DNA of 64,000 bases, taken from the IMG/VR virus record IMGVR_UViG_3300021978_000001, positions 373,491 to 437,490 of that record; one strand, given 5' to 3'. Below, piece after piece: positions 10,060-37,044 of this stretch. The notes under the pieces were generated by a model. The model saw nothing but the letters and a program-made list of their open reading frames with translations. It had not been told where the DNA came from and made no database searches. The position numbers and the translations under genes are program-made. Every line of letters begins with the position of its first letter. Within the stretch, counting starts at the first letter, position 1. The stretch comes from a virus (lineage: Duplodnaviria; Caudoviricetes).

Positions 10060-12351
10060 ATGGCGGACATGTCGGCTCAGATCCAGGACCTTTACCTCGA
10101 ATACGCTGTCGCGGTCGTAACGGGACGCGCGCTTCCCGATGCTCGCGATGGCTTGAAACCCGTGCAACGTCGCATCCTTTATGCAATGGCCAGGGACCTC
10201 AAGCTCTCGCCAGGTGCCAAACATCGCAAGAGCGCGGCTATTGTGGGGCGCGTGCTCGGGGCGTATCACCCGCACGGCGATCAGTCAGTGTATGACGCCA
10301 TGGTGCGCATGGCACAGGACTTTTCGATGCGTTATCCGCTCGTGGACCCACAAGGTAACTTCGGGTCGATTGACGGGGATAACGCTGCATCGATGCGCTA
10401 CACCGAAGCGCGCCTCGCGCCCATGGCAGAGCGTCTGCTCGGGGAACTAGGGCAAGACACCGTGGACCATGACGAGAACTACGATGCCACCACACAGGAG
10501 CCCGTGGTGCTGCCTGCGGAGATCCCCAACCTGCTCATGAATGGTGCCCAGGGGATCGCTGTGGGGATGGCTACCAATATCCCACCCCACAATGCTACCG
10601 AACTGCTCGACGCGCTTATCGACCTGTGCAATCACCCAGAGCGCAGGGTATCGACGCTCATCAAGAATCACATCAACGGCCCTGATTTTCCATCGGGAGG
10701 TGTGATTGTCGAGGGTGAAGACGCGATCATCAAGGTCTATGAGGAGGGCACAGGCTCCCTGACGATGCGGGGTCAGTGGGAACTCGAAGACATGGGGCGT
10801 GGGCGCCAACGTCTGGTCTTTACTGAACTGCCCTATCAGGTGAACAAGGCAGACCTCTTCGAGAAGTGCGCGCAAGCGGTGTATGATGGGGAGATTCCCC
10901 AGGTCTCCGAGGTGCGAGATGAATCGACCGATGACATTCGCCTCGTGTTTGACCTCAAGAAAGGGGAGGACGTCGAGGTCGTGCTCGCGTACCTGTTCAA
11001 GCACACGGCATTGGAGACCAAGTTCCATTACAACTTGACCGCGCTCATTCCGCTCGCGGTGCACGAAGGGGAAGACCCGAGTGACCCGGACACCGAGTTG
11101 ACGCTCGTGCCTTTGCAAAGCGACCTCGTGACGTTGCTCAAGGCGTTCCTTCAACATCGCGTGCGCACGGTCACGCGCCGCACGCGTCACGCGCTCAAGC
11201 TCTTGCAACGCCGCATTCATATCCTGGAGGGCTTCGAGGCCGCGTTCGCAGATGTGGACCGCCTCGTGGCGCTCGTGCGTCAAGCGTCCTCCAAATCAGA
11301 TGCGCGAGAGAACGTCCAGGAAGCCTTTGGTCTCGACCATGATCAAGCTGAAGCGGTCGTGGCGATGGCCTTGCACCGTCTCGCGAGCACCGAGGTCGCT
11401 GATGTCCTCGCGGAACTCGCGGACAAGCGCGCGCAAGCAGAGAAGCTCAAGACCTTACTCGGAGATGCGACCAGCGTGCGAAGTCTCGTGCGCGAGGAGT
11501 TCATTCAGGTCAAGCAGACGCTCTCGGATGCGCGCAAGACACGTATCGAAGCGGCACCCGCGCGAAGCTACGAGTACGAAGAGGAAGCCTACATCCAATC
11601 GCAAGATGTGCATGTCATCTTGACACGTGAGGGTTGGGTGCGCGCGCAGAAGTCTTACTCGGACCTTTCGGCCTTGCGATGCAGGGACGGGGATGAGGTC
11701 GGTTGGGCGCTCGCATGCAACACTCGGGATGTCCTGGTTGTGTTCACTTCGCGAGGCAAAGCCTACAGCGTGCGCGTCGATGAGCTGGAGCTGACGACGG
11801 GGTATGGTTCCCCTGTGCAGACCTTCCTCTCTTTCGAGGATGGCGAACGCGTGGTCGCGGCGCATGTATGTTTGTACGAGCAAACACCGACCGAGGAGAT
11901 GATCAGCGTGACCAGTGATGGTCAGGTGGTTCGTTTCGCCCTGGAGGGGTATCATATCCCATCCAAGGTGACGGGACGTCTCTATCAGCGCATCAAGGCA
12001 GGGGCGCGCGTCCTCAACGTCGAGTGCTACCACCAGGGCCAGGAGGATCGCGTGGTGCTCGCGACGCGCGATGGTAAGGGGATCAGCTTTGACCCGGAAG
12101 AGTGCCGGGTCTTTTCGGGCGCGGGGTATGGCTTGACCGCCATCAACCTCGGGAAAAAGGATGAGGTCCTGGCTTACATGCTGCTCGGTCCTTCGCGCGA
12201 TGATAACATGTACCTGGAGACCAACCGAGGCGCAGAACGCATGCTTACCCACCAGACGTACAAGTCACAGCGTCGCGGGGGCAAGGGCTTCACCATCATC
12301 AAGCGAGGTCACCTCGTGGTCTGGAGACGTCCTGTGGTGCAACAGCTCTAA
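10060..12351 (+). CDS. type IIA topoisomerase subunit A (GyrA/ParC-like)
   Basis: [33 protein letters not shown], catalytic [32 protein letters not shown]-terminal pinwheel blades; gyrase versus topo IV not resolved. Confidence 0.95.
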
Positions 12352-30785: not shown

Positions 30786-31427
30786 ATGAGGGACAACGAC
30801 AGCTACATCTATCGCAAAGGCACCACGCCCAACACGCGTATCGCGATCAGCCAGAAGAACAAGCTCTACTCGGTGGCGCGCGGCCAGACTGCGTTTAGCC
30901 AGGTCGGGCTCGTGTCGAGCTTCGGGTTGAGCGAATCGCGCGCTGTGGACGAGGTGCGTGGGATGGGTTACGGTGATCAGATCGCAGAACTCGTGCCCGG
31001 AGTCACCGGCGCCATGAGCATCTCGGTCAGCCGCACCTTGCTCTATCTCGCAAACATCTACCAGGCCATGGGATACGCTGCGGGCATTGACGGCCTCGTG
31101 CGAAGCCTCAAGCACCACCAGTGGCCCTTTGACCTCAAGCAAGAGCTGGTGTTCTCGCGCATCGCCACCAACTCGCAGAACAACCCCAAGCTCACGGTCC
31201 CCTCTTCGGATGGGGTCAACGAGGCACTCCTCGTGTTCTTCGAGGCTTGCTGGATGGAGTCCTACTCCGCCAACTACGCTTCGGACGCGGCGATGATCTC
31301 GGAAGACGTGGGCATCAAGGCTACCGACGTGATCGACGGTACCTCGACCTACGGCGAGCTTGCTTCCGATGCAGAGTCCACGGGTAACAACCCGTTCTCC
31401 GAGATCGGTTCGCTTCGCTACGGCTAA
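30786..31427 (+). CDS. putative tail tube protein
   Basis: VG.VSSFGLSESRAVDEVRGMGYGDQIAELVPG...SISVSRT...FEACWMESYS.NY; size and pattern of myovirus tube proteins. Confidence 0.65.
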   Translation: MRDNDSYIYRKGTTPNTRIAISQKNKLYSVARGQTAFSQVGLVSSFGLSESRAVDEVRGMGYGDQIAELVPGVTGAMSISVSRTLLYLANIYQAMGYAAGIDGLVRSLKHHQWPFDLKQELVFSRIATNSQNNPKLTVPSSDGVNEALLVFFEACWMESYSANYASDAAMISEDVGIKATDVIDGTSTYGELASDAESTGNNPFSEIGSLRYG

Positions 31428-31443
31428 TCCGTCGCTTTGACGT

Positions 31444-31487
31444 AAAAAAGCCCGCTCTCCTACAAAGAGAGCGGGCTTTTCTTTTTT
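31444..31487. terminator. bidirectional intrinsic terminator
   Basis: AAAAAAGCCCGCTCTC-CTACAAA-GAGAGCGGGCTTTTCTTTTTT between tube gene (+) and solitary CRISPR repeat (-). Confidence 0.9.
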
Positions 31488-31512
31488 CGGGGATGTTTGC
31501 GTGGTAACGAAT

Positions 31513-31541
31513 CGGACCATCCCCGCGCATGCGGGGAAACC
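31513..31541 (-). CRISPR. solitary type I-E CRISPR repeat (cassette 1)
   Basis: Minus strand GGTTTCCCCGCATGCGCGGGGATGGTCCG; CCCCGC/GCGGGG hairpin; no second repeat within one period. Confidence 0.9.
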
Positions 31542-31584
31542 TTTGATACAACCTGTCACACCTTACAACACCGAACTTCGCGTT

Positions 31585-31640
31585 CCTGTACCGAGTCAAA
31601 GGGTACCTCGACTTGACACTACCTGTCAAGTGTTATTCGA
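31585..31640 (-). promoter_or_regulatory. CRISPR cassette promoter copy 1 with 8-bp inverted repeat
   Basis: TTGACA(31629-24)-N18-TACCCT(31605-00); ACTTGACA-N5-TGTCAAGT; 49/56 identical to 32398..32453. Confidence 0.8.
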
Positions 31641-31844
31641 GGCTCTTCTCCTCACTATCATCTCTTTCCCTGAGATCAAGCGCAAGACCGAATCTGCGAC
31701 GGTGCGGCGACGGCCATCATCGAAGCAGACATGCGCGCCGTTGTCATCATCCCCGAGAAGTGTTCCCATGCCGTACTCGGGGTGAAGTACGCGATCTCCG
31801 CGAAACCACCAAGTTCTTTGTACGAGCGTCGTGTCTTTTGTCAT
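31626..31844 (-). CDS. small SH3-like protein (DUF3553-like)
   Basis: AAGGA RBS; GDRVLHPEYGMGTLLG...VCFDDG.RR; stop lies inside the -35 of promoter copy 1. Confidence 0.65.
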   Translation of the reverse strand: MTKDTTLVQRTWWFRGDRVLHPEYGMGTLLGDDDNGAHVCFDDGRRRTVADSVLRLISGKEMIVRRRASNNT

Positions 31845-31855
31845 GGCGCTTCCTT

Positions 31856-32113
31856 TTATGCTGGTCGAAAGTTCCCTACCGCCCACCGTAGCAGGCGTCC
31901 CATTGCCTGAACACTCTCATCTGAGCTTGCGAGCAACCTCGTAGCGGCTTCAGTAGCGCGCTGCTCTGCATCCCCCGAGGTGCCCTCGAAGGCATCCCTC
32001 ACAGCGCGCTTGACGCTTTCTGGGACGTCATTGGCGCGCTCCACAAGGTCGAGACCTTGCGTAGGATTTGCAGCCAACGCGTCGGCGTAAAATACCATCG
32101 TTGTTCGTGCCAT
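31856..32113 (-). CDS. 85-aa helical hypothetical protein directly downstream of array 2
   Basis: ATG 2 nt after terminal repeat; GAGGA SD lies inside the repeat. Confidence 0.7.
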   Translation of the reverse strand: MARTTMVFYADALAANPTQGLDLVERANDVPESVKRAVRDAFEGTSGDAEQRATEAATRLLASSDESVQAMGRLLRWAVGNFRPA

Positions 32114-32115
32114 TT

Positions 32116-32327
32116 TATCCTCGCCCCGCACACGCGGGGAACACTGGTCAATGTCTGAGCGCACGATCTCAGTGATCGGACCATCCCCGCGCACGCGGGG
32201 AACACGGTGAGGGCTGGAGCCGTCACGAGGTGGACATCGGACCATCCCCGCACGCGCGGGGAACACATCTGGTCCCAGGTCTCGGGTGTCCAGTTCACCG
32301 GACCATCCCCGCGCACGCGGGGAACAC
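32116..32327 (-). CRISPR. type I-E CRISPR array 2: 4 repeats, 3 spacers of 32 nt
   Basis: Repeats at 32299-32327, 32238-32266, 32177-32205 and degenerate 32116-32144; 61-bp period. Confidence 0.97.
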
Positions 32328-32453
32328 TCTTCAAATGTCCAGTTCCGTAAGTCCTCGGATTCTTTACAGAATCCTCGAACCCTCGCGAACCCGCTTCCCT
32401 GTACCGACTCGAAAGGTACCTCGACTTGACAGGTCGTGTCAAGTGTTATTCGA
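32328..32453 (-). promoter_or_regulatory. CRISPR leader plus promoter copy 2
   Basis: Leader ends TTTGAAGA before GTGTTCCCC; GGATTCT-N4-AGAATCC inverted repeat; TTGACA-N18-TACCTT; ACTTGACA-N5-TGTCAAGT. Confidence 0.85.
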
Positions 32454-32697
32454 CGACTTTTCCATCACTCGCAGGGATGAACACCCCCGGCCCGCGTTCG
32501 AGCACGGCGAAAAACCCCTGCTCGCCATTATGGACCCCCCTGTGCGCGGGATGGTTACGGAAAGCGACGCGTCGGCCTTTCGAGCCATCCACGGTCACGT
32601 CGATGCGGCATTTGGTGCCAGGTCCGATTTGGGCCATGTACGTGTCGGGGTCGATGATTTTGTGGCCGTAGGTGTTCGTGCCGTCTTCGTTCGTCAT
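32446..32697 (-). CDS. hypothetical protein
   Basis: GAGGA RBS; own class I promoter; stop abuts promoter copy 2. Confidence 0.65.
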   Translation of the reverse strand: MTNEDGTNTYGHKIIDPDTYMAQIGPGTKCRIDVTVDGSKGRRVAFRNHPAHRGVHNGEQGFFAVLERGPGVFIPASDGKVVE

Positions 32698-32735
32698 AGC
32701 ATTCCTCTCTTGATGGTGAGTTCACGTTACGCTTT

Positions 32736-32765
32736 ATCTATACCACAAGAGGGACAGGCCGTAAA
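32736..32765 (-). promoter_or_regulatory. recurrent phage promoter class I
   Basis: TTTACG-N17(...CTTGTGG)-TATAGAT. Confidence 0.75.
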
Positions 32766-32768
32766 GAA

Positions 32769-33257
32769 TCAATCTCCAGGCAAGAGGGAGTGACTCGGCA
32801 CATCCTTGACACCGAGCAAGGAAGGGAGGAAGGCGAGCGCTTCTTCGATCGTGGGGAAGATGAGGTCTGCGGCTTCACGGATGAACGCGTGATCCATGCA
32901 ATGCCCATCCGTCAGCCCCGCGATCACGACCAGCGTGTGCTCTTGACGCGAGGCCCACGCGATCTCGAAGGTGGTCCCGAGCGAGCGCGAGGTGGCGCCG
33001 GTGAGATCCGCGAGCAGGACATCGGCTTGCGCGACCATCCAGGAGTCCCGCCCGAAGATGGCGCGGTCATTGGAGATGGGGTCTTTGTAGCCCTTGGCCT
33101 TGGCTTCCCCTTGCCCGAGCAAGTGCTCCTTACCGAGCATCGGATGCAGGACATGGAAACCCATCGCCTTGAGGACGGTCCCGCGCTCGTGGAAGTGGTT
33201 GTAAGCGTCGTCGAGGTCGAGGCCCGTGATCGGTCCGGCTGCGTAAATGGTGGTCAT
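32769..33257 (-). CDS. nucleoside 2-deoxyribosyltransferase / NMP hydrolase-like protein
   Basis: IYAAGPITG, VLHP, D...V.QADVLLA, S.GT.FEIAWA. Confidence 0.8.
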   Translation of the reverse strand: MTTIYAAGPITGLDLDDAYNHFHERGTVLKAMGFHVLHPMLGKEHLLGQGEAKAKGYKDPISNDRAIFGRDSWMVAQADVLLADLTGATSRSLGTTFEIAWASRQEHTLVVIAGLTDGHCMDHAFIREAADLIFPTIEEALAFLPSLLGVKDVPSHSLLPGD

Positions 33258-33380
33258 GGTGTGCTACCTGTTGGTGACCCTGGGGAGGGTATCTCTCTTG
33301 TACCTCGAATGCTCCGGCCTGTCCAGTAAGCTGTGATATTTCCCTTGTAATGTGGGCTCTTTGACCCATGAGGAGGCGCC

Positions 33381-33755
33381 ATGGCTTCGGTTCGAGAAAT
33401 CCTGCACACGTATCTTGGGATGAACGTCTCGGGGAAACTCCGTGATGCCTTGATCGACATGTTGAGCTACAAGTCCCTCCCTTCCTGGGAGGATTGGCAA
33501 ACATGGTACCTCAATACAGTCGTGGAACACCTGGTTATCTTGTTGCCGGGTGCCACAGGGGACGGTCACGAAATCACGTTCACGCACTCTGAACACGGCT
33601 GGGTTCACCTGGCCTTTTCGTTTCGCACGGGTACCCAGACGCTTTGCGTGTCGATCCGAACCTCGAATCACCATGTGTGTTTGTATGAGGAAGACCCAAA
33701 CCTGTTGAGTCTTCTGGTCGTGCGCATTCACGAGACCCTGAGAGATCTATCATGA
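33381..33755 (+). CDS. hypothetical protein
   Basis: GAGGAGG RBS. Confidence 0.65.
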   Translation: MASVREILHTYLGMNVSGKLRDALIDMLSYKSLPSWEDWQTWYLNTVVEHLVILLPGATGDGHEITFTHSEHGWVHLAFSFRTGTQTLCVSIRTSNHHVCLYEEDPNLLSLLVVRIHETLRDLS

Positions 33756-34363
33756 CACTCGACGAACTCAAGACCACCTTGCTCGCCATGGGTGTTCAAC
33801 ACCCCGAAGTCAAGCTCCAGTTGCGCGCGGTGATGGATACGCTCTCGACAGGTGTCTTCGATCCCTCCCGTATCGCACGCACGAGGCGTGTGGCCGCGAT
33901 CCCCAAGAAGTACGAGCATCTCGACTTCACGCCACCCAAGGACGTGCAGGAGGCCGCAGGGCAGGGTCTCGAACTGCGTCAGGAGCAAGAGGGCGATAAG
34001 GCGGGGTTGACCAATGAAGAGGCGAGCGATCAGGGCATCGGGTCTGGTGTGCAGCGCGCGGTCAACCTCAAGAACGGGACCAAGCTCGAACCTGACACCA
34101 TCCGGCAGATGGATCGGTTCTTCAAGCGCTTCGCGTCTCTTATCGAGAAGGCGCGTCGTCTCACCAAGAAAGAGGAGATCCTCAAGTCCAATATGCATAT
34201 CAGTGATCTGCTCTGGGGAGGCGCGCCCGGTGAGAAGTGGGTCACCAAGATGATCCGCGAGATGGATAAGGCGGATGAGGCAGAGAAGAAAAAGGAGAGC
34301 GCCCTCGCACGTCGCGTCGCTTCTGTTTACCTTATGGCGCGAGGCGTGGCTCAGGGTCATTGA
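33752..34363 (+). CDS. phage head-associated domain protein
   Basis: FTPPKDVQEAA..GLELR...GVQRA.NL.NG....DTIRQM.RFF.R...LLWGG..G..W pattern seen in phage head/protease fusions; ends ARRVASVYL. Confidence 0.65.
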   Translation: MTLDELKTTLLAMGVQHPEVKLQLRAVMDTLSTGVFDPSRIARTRRVAAIPKKYEHLDFTPPKDVQEAAGQGLELRQEQEGDKAGLTNEEASDQGIGSGVQRAVNLKNGTKLEPDTIRQMDRFFKRFASLIEKARRLTKKEEILKSNMHISDLLWGGAPGEKWVTKMIREMDKADEAEKKKESALARRVASVYLMARGVAQGH

Positions 34364-34703
34364 GCGGTCGCACGCGCTCCAGCTTCACGTCATCCTGGTG
34401 CACGAGTACGCGCTGTCCTTCCTGGCGTTGGATCTCCCAGCACGCCCATTGCACATCCTTGTAGATGGATTCACACAGGTTCTTGACCTGGTTATAGGCT
34501 TCCTTGCCCTCCTGATACCAGAGACGGTCCATCGAATCCGAATCGAAGAGAAGATAGGTACGCCTCTCTTCGGGCTGAAACCCGTGCGCCTTGTATGCTG
34601 CGTCCGGCGTATCATGCTCGGTTAGATGAATCGTGAGCTTGGTTTGTGCCAGCCCATCCTCCTGTTGCTTTATCGTACCCATTTTCACACTGAGCCATGT
34701 CAT
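34332..34703 (-). CDS. 123-aa hypothetical protein directly downstream of array 3
   Basis: AGAAGGA SD begins immediately after terminal repeat; ATG 14 nt downstream. Confidence 0.7.
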   Translation of the reverse strand: MTWLSVKMGTIKQQEDGLAQTKLTIHLTEHDTPDAAYKAHGFQPEERRTYLLFDSDSMDRLWYQEGKEAYNQVKNLCESIYKDVQWACWEIQRQEGQRVLVHQDDVKLERVRPLNDPEPRLAP

Positions 34704-34717
34704 GGTTGTTTCCTTCT

Positions 34718-35162
34718 GGGGCTATCCCCGCGCATGCGGGGAATGTCGTTTCGCGCGTAAACAGGGCATCGAGCCATCCCCACAGATGTGGGGAACATAG
34801 GAGGCGAGCGCCAACATGAGACCAGATCCTCGGACCATCCCCGCACATGCGGGGAAAACATGTCCATATTCTCACCAATGAGTGAGGGCGAGCCATCCCC
34901 GCATGCGCGGGGAACACGGGTATACCCGGTATAGGAGGTATTCCTGGAATAGGGCCATCCCCGCATGCGCGGGGAACACAAAGAGTGGTGCGTGCGCGGT
35001 TCCAGACCCACCGGACCATCCCCGCACGCGCGGGGAACACGACAGCAGCGCCCACACGGGCATCACACGCCCCGGACCATCCCCGCGCATGCGGGGAACA
35101 CTCCGTCAATGAGGTCAGCATCCGCCCATATTGCGGACCATCCCCGCGCATGCGGGGAACAC
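34718..35162 (-). CRISPR. type I-E CRISPR array 3: 8 repeats, 7 spacers (32,32,32,33,29,32,23 nt from leader)
   Basis: Repeats at 35134, 35073, 35012, 34951, 34889, 34831, 34770, 34718 (29 nt each); degeneracy increases away from leader. Confidence 0.97.
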
Positions 35163-35278
35163 TCTTCAAATGTTCAGTTCCGTAAGTCCTCGGATTCCTT
35201 AAAGAATCCTCAGACCCTTCCGAACCCGGTTCTCTGTACCGACTCGAAAGGTACCTCAACAGGCCAAACCCTGTCAAG
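35163..35278 (-). promoter_or_regulatory. CRISPR leader plus promoter copy 3
   Basis: 86/95 nt identical to leader 2; TTGACA(35277-72)-N18-TACCTT(35253-48). Confidence 0.85.
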
Positions 35279-35355
35279 TATGTTTTTTCTCCAGTGGTAT
35301 TCTTCTTGTGGCGTGAGCTTTACAGGAATGACTGTCTCTCACGCGAGTTATCATC

Positions 35356-37044
35356 ATGCTACCAAAGATCACCCCCAACCTCGAACAGCGCCTCAAGCAC
35401 GAGGTGTGCGAGGTCGCGCGCCAGGGCTTGATGCAAGTCCCTTCCAAATCCCCCAACCGCATGCTTTCCAAGCTCGCAAAGCACCTTGTCGGCAAGGTCG
35501 ATCTCCCTGCGGGCGCGTTGAGCCAACAGGAAGCGTACCGCTTCGCCATGGAGCTGCTCGGGCAATGCCGCGTCGCCTTGACCGCACATGATGTCAAGAG
35601 CGCGGTCAAGGAAGTCACCGGGGACGAAAACCCCCTCGTGGATACCTCGACCGTCCAGCGTATCGCTGCGGCACTCCAGAAAGGATGCGAAGGCATGCGT
35701 GATGACGCGGAACGTGGTGCTCAGGGCGCCTTGCGTACCGTGACCAAGCTGCTTGTCCGCGATATGGCGCTCGAAGAATGGTCCGCCATGCAAGTCAGCG
35801 ATGCCATGGTCCGTGATATGCTGATCACGCTCCCGATGGCATCCGATCAGATCGCAGGATTCCTTTCGACCTATGTGTCCCGCGCCGCGAGCATTCGGCT
35901 CGTGCAAGCGCGTAAGGTCGCGCGCGCCTTCGCCATGAAGGCTGCTTGCGTGAGCTTGACAGAAAGGACTGCATGCGAGGGCGGGAACTGTGCTTGCTCG
36001 GGCGCCTGCGCTTGCGCATGTGAGGGCTACGCGAATCAGGATGCTTGTGCGTGTGCCTCGGTGACGTCGGGCATCACGATCGCCAATGCAGAAGACTTCC
36101 CAAAGAGCACCCAGGTCGCGATGAAGCGTCTCAAGAAGATCAATGAAGATCTCGAAATGCTCTCGACCAAGATCGAAAAGCTCGAAGATCAGGGCGTGGA
36201 TGCCTCCAAGCTGCATGGGAAGCGCAATGACCTCCAGGGAGAGTACGACCGCACGGTGCGTCTCTTGGAAGGCTTCGGCGTCAAGGTCGCAAAGAACTAT
36301 CCACCCGAAGTCGAACGCTACGTCGAGGAGCACAAGGCGCAAGGCATGCCTGTCGGTAAGGCATGGGCCATCGCCTGGTCGCGCTATTGCAAGTACAAGA
36401 ACCCAGGCAGCGAGCATTGCAAGGGGAAGGATTACTTCCCGGGGCGACGCTCCGCGCAGCTCCCGCGCCGTCAACCTCGTGAAGCGGGAAAGGACGACGC
36501 CAGGATGTTCAACATGGACCCCACGCGCTACACCCGTGAAGAGCGGCGTGAGATCTTGAGGGAGCGCCCCTGGCTGCATCCCCGCAACCCGAGCGCGCTC
36601 GACTATGCCATGGATGCCTTGCGCAAGCCTCTGGCGAACTGGCAAGAGGGCGGTTCCGGGAAAGGCGCGGTATTCGCGGCATACAATGCGTTGCATGAGG
36701 ACCAGAAGAAAGCGCTGGCCATGGCAAACGCCAAGGTGATGCCTTCGAGTACAGTGGCGTTCCGCTCCAGCATGAACGGTAAGACGTTCCCCTCGTCGAT
36801 GAAGGGGCAATCGTTGCATGTCGAGATCGAACCTGGCATGGCGCGGCTCGGACCCAACCATGTCCGCGCTTACCAGGTCACGCCACGCGAGGTGATGATT
36901 CACCCGGACATCCCCGGGTCTCCGCTCGGCAAGGGTGTGTGGAAGTGGGAGCGCGAGATGATCCTGATGCCGGACGCGAACCCCAAGCGTCTTTCCGATG
37001 CACAGACCGCAAAACTTCTCGATTCGATCGCCAGGAGAGGCTGA
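35356..37044 (+). CDS. multi-domain putative internal virion protein with C-terminal ART-like domain
   Basis: R/K-x-A motifs, Cys-rich linker, AWAIAWS module, C-terminal FR...GQSL...WEREMIL. Confidence 0.6.
   Translation: MLPKITPNLEQRLKHEVCEVARQGLMQVPSKSPNRMLSKLAKHLVGKVDLPAGALSQQEAYRFAMELLGQCRVALTAHDVKSAVKEVTGDENPLVDTSTVQRIAAALQKGCEGMRDDAERGAQGALRTVTKLLVRDMALEEWSAMQVSDAMVRDMLITLPMASDQIAGFLSTYVSRAASIRLVQARKVARAFAMKAACVSLTERTACEGGNCACSGACACACEGYANQDACACASVTSGITIANAEDFPKSTQVAMKRLKKINEDLEMLSTKIEKLEDQGVDASKLHGKRNDLQGEYDRTVRLLEGFGVKVAKNYPPEVERYVEEHKAQGMPVGKAWAIAWSRYCKYKNPGSEHCKGKDYFPGRRSAQLPRRQPREAGKDDARMFNMDPTRYTREERREILRERPWLHPRNPSALDYAMDALRKPLANWQEGGSGKGAVFAAYNALHEDQKKALAMANAKVMPSSTVAFRSSMNGKTFPSSMKGQSLHVEIEPGMARLGPNHVRAYQVTPREVMIHPDIPGSPLGKGVWKWEREMILMPDANPKRLSDAQTAKLLDSIARRG

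Follow-up and report, generated by a model that had tools for sequence, protein, structure and literature searches.

Type I-E CRISPR–Cas systems, such as those of Escherichia coli K-12 and Thermus thermophilus, combine arrays of 29-nt repeats (in outline GTGTTCCCCGC, a loop of 4 nt, GCGGGG and a handle of 8 nt that has CCG at its end) and 32-nt spacers at a 61-nt period with the effector proteins Cas3, Cse1, Cse2, Cas7e, Cas5e and Cas6e, and their arrays usually end in a non-coding trailer. Cas6-family hairpins have also been placed immediately 5′ of a ribosome-binding site (RBS) in man-made constructs, the engineered Cas6/Csy4 sites, where cleavage sets the 5′ end of the mRNA and removes the RNA ahead of it, and expression is altered. 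By analogy, these constructs are the closest relatives in mechanism of the junction described here, which is natural and known from its sequence alone. For the Cas6e of Thermus (Cse3), it was found that the 21-nt hairpin of the repeat suffices as substrate, that the cut falls after G21 with altered 3′ sequence being tolerated, and that the nucleotide at +1 matters, A being cut fastest and C, G or U more slowly, with non-A substrates being poor at 37 °C (PMC3683919). The distal repeat of mini-arrays is often degenerate, according to Shmakov et al. (PMC10120712). Phage mini-arrays, solitary repeat units, RNA anti-CRISPRs (PMC10651486) and regulatory crRNA-like mini-arrays (PMC10120712) share with the present locus short arrays or single repeats in a viral genome, some of them in or next to cas genes, and mimicry of type I repeats. 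They are described as decoys for Cas proteins or as promoter-repressing guides (Camara-Wilpert et al. 2023, PMC10651486; Shmakov et al. 2023, PMC10120712), and the searched text of the two papers makes no mention of a coupling to translation. Translational repression based on Cas6f is described as relying on guide RNAs directed against target mRNAs and not on a bound hairpin (PMC13478208). The literature searched contained mini-arrays regulating transcription and RNA anti-CRISPRs, and no natural Cas6 site fused to an RBS.

The locus considered here lies in the window (the whole stretch of DNA analysed), which covers the final 64 kb of a virus record of 437,490 bp that has direct repeats at its termini. 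In this window a short array, array 2, runs into an open reading frame (ORF) of 85 codons. The reading favoured here, to which a probability of roughly 0.68 is assigned, is that this junction is the trailer end of a phage-borne type I-E mini-array embedded in an mRNA, in which the array would act as the 5′ UTR of a co-transcribed gene and Cas6e would release the mRNA. The repeat elements, spacer length, period and effector proteins listed above for the canonical systems are all found in this phage; the effector genes were recognized with Pfam (Table 1). Differences from the canonical systems concern the absence of Cas1, the fusion of Cse1 with Cse2, the scattering of about 11 arrays interleaved with genes, the variable loops and the fact that arrays run directly into coding genes. 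Cas1 (PF01867) gave no match across the complete 437-kb record, control genomes being recovered by the same search, and no adaptation module (Cas1–Cas2) is recognized, as judged from Cas1 alone.

The genome contains one Cas6e gene (genome 17776-17051). In its product, the motif YALHQ (His48) aligns with YQLHQ of E. coli CasE, the histidine of which we take to be the catalytic His20, and the glycine-rich C-terminal loop is kept (GLGRGKAFGAG versus GIGPAKSMGCG in E. coli). With the catalytic His conserved in this alignment, the phage Cas6e is catalytically plausible. The preliminary description had suggested that a host Cas6 does the cutting and that the 85-aa ORF could be a sensor of host CRISPR activity; since the phage brings its own cognate Cas6e, together with Cascade and Cas3, the need for a host enzyme falls away, and with it the sensor idea. 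The same gene content separates the locus from RNA anti-CRISPRs and solitary repeats, as does the fact that the repeat under study ends a four-repeat array with normal 32-nt spacers. When compared with the phage's own genome, the spacers, those of array 2 included, gave no significant match, only chance matches of 12–17 nt, so no self-targeting or autoregulatory guide was found. IMG/VR searched with the phage Cas6e gave no relatives, a word-indexed search returned its own cluster alone, IMG/VR searched with the exact repeat gave only two unrelated contigs, and the repeat matches in a genome collection (Gordonia, a Burkholderiales MAG, Streptomyces and others) are too scattered to name a host.

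Table 1. Features of the array-2 locus, array–gene junctions and effector genes. Positions are those of the window unless marked as genome positions; SD, Shine–Dalgarno sequence.
Feature	Position	Strand	Description
Promoter-leader cassette of array 2	32328..32469	-	TTGACA 32442-32437, 18-nt gap, TACCTT 32418-32413
Array 2 without terminal repeat	32145..32327	-	Three full 29-nt type I-E repeats and three 32-nt spacers
Terminal repeat, first 21 nt	32124..32144	-	5-nt tail and 6-bp GC stem, GTGT loop
SD leader	32114..32123	-	10 nt, hairpin base to ATG; CGAGGATA in the place of the handle, then AA
85-aa ORF	31856..32113	-	85 aa and stop; predicted five-helix protein
72-aa ORF	31626..31844	-	AAGGA 6 nt before ATG; ATG 11 nt past the stop of the 85-aa ORF
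Third promoter-leader cassette with solitary repeat (31541-31513)	31513..31656	-	Lacking in relative L017
Terminator-like hairpin and T-run	31446..31480	-	A/T runs on both sides; could act on both strands
Array-2 junction	32144		Hairpin base to ATG 10 nt; SD inside former handle
Sister junction	34703..34746	-	Terminal repeat (34746-34718) of an 8-repeat array, handle ATAGCCCC, AG, AAGGA, 7 nt, ATG (34703), 123-aa ORF; hairpin base to ATG 22 nt
Sister junction	genome 110436		Hairpin base to ATG 15 nt; SD inside former handle CTTAGGAG
Junction	genome 17816		Hairpin base to ATG 19 nt; precedes cas6e
Junction	genome 23045		Hairpin base to ATG 20 nt
Junction	genome 30947		Hairpin base to ATG 21 nt
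Junction	genome 25500		Hairpin base to ATG 26 nt
Effector genes (Pfam)	genome 13.6-22.3 kb		Cas6e PF08798 (94 bits); Cas7e PF09344; Cas5e PF09704; Cse1 PF09481 and Cse2 PF09485 (fused); Cas3 PF18019 and PF22590

Array 2 follows a conserved leader and comprises four repeats, spaced with a period of 61 nt (32327-32116). Its three full repeats (32327-32299, 32266-32238 and 32205-32177) all carry the handle ATGGTCCG, which is the consensus, and the minus strand from 32144 to 32116 reads as the terminal type I-E repeat with a perfect 6-bp stem. The order of elements from 32144 to 32111 is GTGTT, CCCCGC, GTGT, GCGGGG, CGAGGATA, AA and ATG. The hairpin, with a predicted energy of -11.7 kcal/mol, lacks a T-run on its 3′ side. 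Within the first 21 nt, the sole difference from the neighbouring repeat (32205-32177) is loop position 15. The last 8 nt, in turn, mismatch the consensus handle at 7 of 8 positions and contain the SD sequence GAGGA (32122-32118), 1 nt from the hairpin base and 4 nt ahead of the ATG (32113-32111); the terminal copy thus agrees with a type I-E repeat in all parts but the handle. In these respects (intact hairpin, rewritten handle, placement of GAGGA) the preliminary description is correct at every base. Occurrences of the hairpin motif far exceed chance: the pattern CCCCGC-N4-GCGGGG matches 12 times in the window, where 0.35 matches are expected, and TTCCCCGC-N4-GCGGGG, which is stricter, 50 times in the genome, every one on the minus strand. 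The 4-nt spacing between SD and start codon is short yet in use in this phage, where about 11% of the AGGA sites ahead of crudely called gene starts show it. From its sequence, the terminal hairpin is expected to be the 3′ hairpin of the last crRNA and the site where Cas6e binds and cuts, after 32124.

A whole-genome repeat scan, in which repeats were grouped into 11 true arrays and solitary repeats, places this junction in a wider setting. The 6-bp stem is perfect in all 11 terminal repeats, in some through compensatory changes (CCCCAC/GTGGGG or TCCCAC/GTGGGA), while their handles match the consensus at 3.4 of 7 positions, compared with 6.5 of 7 for internal repeats (n = 57). This decay affects 10 of the 11 arrays, with or without an abutting gene; in this genome, then, terminal repeats as a rule lose the handle and keep the hairpin. 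The handle of a terminal repeat is free to vary because its 8 nt serve only a following spacer, and none follows; the hairpin is kept because the last crRNA needs it as its 3′ end and as docking site for Cas6e. As in the degenerate trailer-end repeats described elsewhere, the 3′ part of the leader-distal repeat departs from an otherwise uniform array; here, however, the decay stops exactly at the hairpin base. Moreover, the freed 8 nt do not belong to a non-coding trailer: a gene's RBS occupies them or comes directly after them. Of the 11 arrays, seven, among them the one before cas6e, end 10–26 nt ahead of an SD and ATG, and the four others have longer trailers of about 43 to 130 nt. At the five abutting junctions without an SD in the handle, AAGGA begins 8–14 nt past the hairpin base, which places it where the 8-nt handle ends or slightly farther on. 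The array-2 junction is thus one instance of a genome-wide design. Across the seven junctions, hairpin and SD are 2 to 14 nt apart, a spread that looks like tight packing and not like a tuned device. It had also been proposed that the rewritten handle serves to keep the mRNA out of Cascade; as a general design this is rejected, for elsewhere the handle of an abutting junction may still match at as many as 5 of 7 positions.

Several other features of the arrays were noted. The 4-nt loop varies from repeat to repeat inside single arrays (GTGC, GCGT, GTGT, GCAT, ATGC, CCTT and others), whereas the stems are preserved, in some cases through compensatory substitutions; ordinary arrays consist of near-identical repeats, and variable loops might limit recombination between repeats. 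In three arrays the last spacer is shortened to 20–23 nt instead of 32 (window 34747-34769; genome 110437-110457 and 23046-23065). The one at genome 110437 has a single change in a relative whose other spacers all differ, and a search of the phage's own genome with the short last spacers gave no target. Solitary repeats also occur directly before tRNA-like sequence outside the window (genome 148882, 127694 and 127079); the window itself contains no tRNAs, and none of its sequence matches an Rfam family at gathering thresholds.

Whether array and gene share a transcript depends on the leader and on what lies between the two. Leaders in this genome are of two kinds, long ones of about 115 nt with TTGACA-N18-TACCTT and short ones without a promoter element. 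The long type found at array 2 precedes five arrays, and the leaders of arrays 2 and 3 are 88% identical over 146 nt (family D4). From this conservation, which is its only basis, we infer a promoter in the array-2 leader; a strict sigma-70 scan of 31300-35400 called no promoter, the -10-like TACCTT failing the consensus. The short leader, devoid of TTGACA, is found at four arrays; three of these lie directly behind cas7, cas6e and cse1-cse2 and, given both features, look like parts of the cas transcript. No conserved promoter can sit inside array 2, since every spacer upstream of the 85-aa ORF differs in the relative L017. The only terminator-like site in 31300-35400 (31480-31446) lies about 630 nt downstream of the ATG, past the solitary repeat. 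Array 2, the 85-aa ORF and the 72-aa ORF are thus very probably co-transcribed, as far as their sequence can tell. No RNA sequencing run is listed as containing the phage stretch, and the one metatranscriptome of the source sample has next to none of its sequence words. Around the long cassettes, upstream gene, promoter, array and downstream gene abut without spare bases. The 5′ edge of the array-2 cassette overlaps the stop codon of an upstream 83-aa ORF (TAA, 32448-32446), and the long cassette supplies the preceding ORF with an in-frame ending of the form ...TCGAATAA, followed by three bases and the TTGACA -35 element (window 32436-32452 and 31623-31639).

The interpretation further requires that the 85-aa ORF be a gene, the alternative being that the juxtaposition is due to chance, the frame not being a gene and GAGGA and ATG arising by accident in an array trailer. 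This alternative could draw on the isolation of the protein, which has no match in Pfam or PHROG, gives nothing at E <= 0.001 in fold searches of PDB and BFVD and is rare, with only four matches among 1.8 billion cluster representatives. Its Atlas feature matches were all below 0.85, and IMG/VR gave no relatives of it. Against it stand the changes in a 96%-identical copy, which are mostly synonymous (five synonymous and three non-synonymous codon changes, dN/dS about 0.25), and the confident structure predictions (single-sequence AF2 pLDDT 81; ESM Atlas pLDDT 0.87). All four homologues begin at the same aligned Met, and an exhaustive profile search yielded two more distant ones, 48% and 59% identical and of the same length. 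On the strength of dN/dS, structure models and shared start, the 85-aa ORF is a real gene. The 72-aa ORF behind it is well coupled to it, as judged from its start signals (Table 1), and its first 62 codons differ from those of the relative by four synonymous and one non-synonymous changes. Chance juxtaposition is largely refuted and is considered scarcely credible.

Beyond the 72-aa ORF, the solitary repeat of the third cassette would give the transcript of the two ORFs a second Cas6e site at its 3′ side. This cassette is an insertion or replacement relative to the 96%-identical phage, in which an intact 110-aa ORF is found (L017:765-1094), and its absence there makes cassette turnover visible; the change at the break point extends into the 72-aa ORF, whose final 10 codons are replaced. 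The 32 nt past the solitary repeat in the window are homologous to the coding sequence of this 110-aa ORF, and this 'pseudo-spacer' is therefore a former gene sequence of the phage itself, which could guide Cascade against relatives keeping the gene. Other neighbours include, between arrays 3 and 2, an ORF of 162 aa (window 32769-33257, minus strand) with a match to nucleoside 2-deoxyribosyltransferase (PF05014, E 1e-8), and, farther away, a 763-aa homologue of gyrase/topoisomerase IV subunit A (window 10060-12351, plus strand; PF00521, E 3e-134). Comparison by blastn of the 4-kb region with a collection of phage GenBank entries gave no match.

Relatives inform on the persistence of the junction. 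The 96%-identical copy of the 85-aa protein is encoded on L017, a 1.1-kb marine contig with at least five repeats, all of its spacers being different; its junction has the same stem, ATTT instead of GTGT in the loop, and an identical 10-nt leader and ATG. Further contigs, from the runs X2 and X3 of a single marine study, agree with this: apart from the spacers, they depart from the window at loop positions 32131 and 32133 alone, the 10-nt leader (32114..32123) again being identical. Conservation of the array-2 junction is seen only at about 96% identity, where 30 unchanged bases are expected by chance about once in three cases, and is not significant alone. When L017 and the contigs of runs X2 and X3 are compared with 32145-32327, two phages about 96% identical prove to share no spacer in array 2 and to differ in repeat number; in a phage without Cas1, such spacer turnover must use a host adaptation module or recombination.

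Deeper comparison is possible at the sister junction at genome 110436, with two relatives whose proteins are 94% and 82% identical. In the more distant one (L019), whose ORF has 76.5% DNA identity, the junction shows no change at any of its 31 non-loop positions between 5′ tail and ATG, and each of the four loop positions differs. The chance of zero change over the 27 stem and leader positions is roughly 0.765^27, about 7e-4. Formation of the crRNA 3′ end together with an ordinary RBS would also explain this conservation. In the closer relative (L020), the terminal stem contains an A-C mismatch and the C at +1 is deleted, indicating that the terminal hairpin can erode and is not inviolable.

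The origin of the SD is illuminated by the 48%-identical homologue, encoded on contig L018 (8.9 kb), where the start is formed by GAGGAG-N6-ATG. The 6.25-kb locus around this gene is devoid of repeat hairpins, none lying within 3 kb; the gene family therefore exists without arrays and with the same SD core. The SD of the 85-aa ORF is probably the gene's own, it being understood that SD motifs are generic and that the GAGGA of this homologue weighs little as evidence. That the handle turned into an SD step by step through point changes is less likely, and is set aside here, as 7 of 8 positions differ and the distant homologue has the SD core without a repeat. The simplest history suggested by these sequences is that a leader-repeat cassette, or an array, came to abut the gene's own RBS, the repeat ending at the hairpin base. 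Replacement of the handle by an SD as an adaptation, as first proposed, finds no support, for terminal handles decay regardless of the gene and the SD is present without a repeat in L018; the same observations fit the null explanation already offered at that stage, a hairpin beside a pre-existing RBS.

Taken as a mechanism, the array as a 5′ UTR cut by the phage Cas6e would operate as follows. The leader promoter would produce a joint transcript of array, 85-aa ORF and 72-aa ORF, perhaps supplemented by transcripts that read through from upstream. Of the terminal repeat, the first 21 nt would have been retained because the last crRNA depends on them as a 3′ hairpin, both for processing by Cas6e and for assembly of Cascade, and in a tightly packed genome this hairpin would have ended up directly against the gene's own RBS. 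Cas6e would most likely cut after 32124, the last G of the stem, and split the last crRNA from the mRNA, and the freed mRNA would start at 32123 with a 5′-OH and a 10-nt leader, devoid of a Cascade handle. By analogy with the Thermus enzyme, cleavage at 32124 should occur, probably more slowly than in a canonical repeat as the nucleotide at +1 is C and not A. With this slower substrate, the hairpin could stay on part of the mRNA; an effect of the junction on translation or mRNA stability may follow.

An alternative takes poor cutting as its premise: the terminal hairpin would persist as a 5′-proximal stabilizer of the mRNA, or as an operator for repression by Cas6e, providing negative feedback at an excess of free enzyme. 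Cas6e is a single-turnover enzyme that remains on its hairpin, and three of the seven abutting junctions have C at +1, non-A nucleotides making poor Cse3 substrates at 37 °C. However, the other four, including the one before cas6e, have A, which gives the best substrate, and the last crRNA requires this very cut for its 3′ end. This alternative is held to be very improbable.

A second alternative is translation gated by the phage Cas6e, the hairpin or bound Cas6e hindering the 30S subunit and cleavage freeing the RBS, as a timing or feed-forward device for array-linked genes including cas6e itself. In its favour, a stable hairpin has its base 1 nt from GAGGA, seven of the 11 arrays share the layout, the one before cas6e among them, and stem and leader are invariant at junction 110436 against a 76.5%-identical ORF. 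Structured standby sites beside an SD are known to reduce initiation. To evaluate occlusion, the seven junctions were folded as precursor and as cleaved product, and the ViennaRNA unpaired probability of leader and AUG was compared. Little or no change on cleavage was seen, the value barely shifting at most of them. At the array-2 junction, the value from SD to AUG is 0.27 in the precursor and 0.27 in the cleaved form, as codons 7-10 of the ORF pair weakly with AUAAAAUG either way. The claim that the hairpin blocks the SD until cleavage is therefore not borne out at the level of base pairing, and any gate would have to be steric, possibly exerted by the -11.7 kcal/mol stem or by bound Cas6e 1-2 nt from the SD, an effect that standby sites and the engineered Cas6/Csy4 constructs make plausible. 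The variable hairpin-to-SD distance, which suggests packing and not tuning, the decay of terminal handles irrespective of an abutting gene, and the function of the gene family elsewhere with a plain RBS and no repeat all speak against a gate. In addition, if the cas genes are expressed as expected, each infection brings Cas6e and the gate would rarely be closed, and the C at +1 should slow the cleavage meant to open it. The indication for a regulatory gate thus reduces to geometry, and gated translation is considered unlikely.

A broader form of the favoured reading, in which the array is a 5′ UTR that Cas6e separates from the mRNA, is that the repeats, in arrays or singly, are built into polycistronic transcripts as general RNA-processing sites, Cas6e setting the 5′ ends (and, by way of the repeat that comes next, also the 3′ ends) of early-gene mRNAs including that of cas6e and so tying translation or stability to its own activity; this extension is possible, and is put forward as a doubtful one.

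If Cas6e does cut so that the mRNA begins at 32123, a natural CRISPR nuclease would shape a protein-coding mRNA besides guide RNAs, in a phage with a whole effector system. Should this not be true, the locus would still illustrate cleanly how selection can be limited to the first 21 nt in a terminal repeat. If true, CRISPR arrays can double as untranslated leaders in operons, with seven such junctions in this genome, and the repeats as processing sites would be the natural counterpart of synthetic Csy4/Cas6 insulators. Reading arrays as leaders would, if correct, also help in annotating the genomes of huge phages, where small genes directly behind arrays are easily missed.
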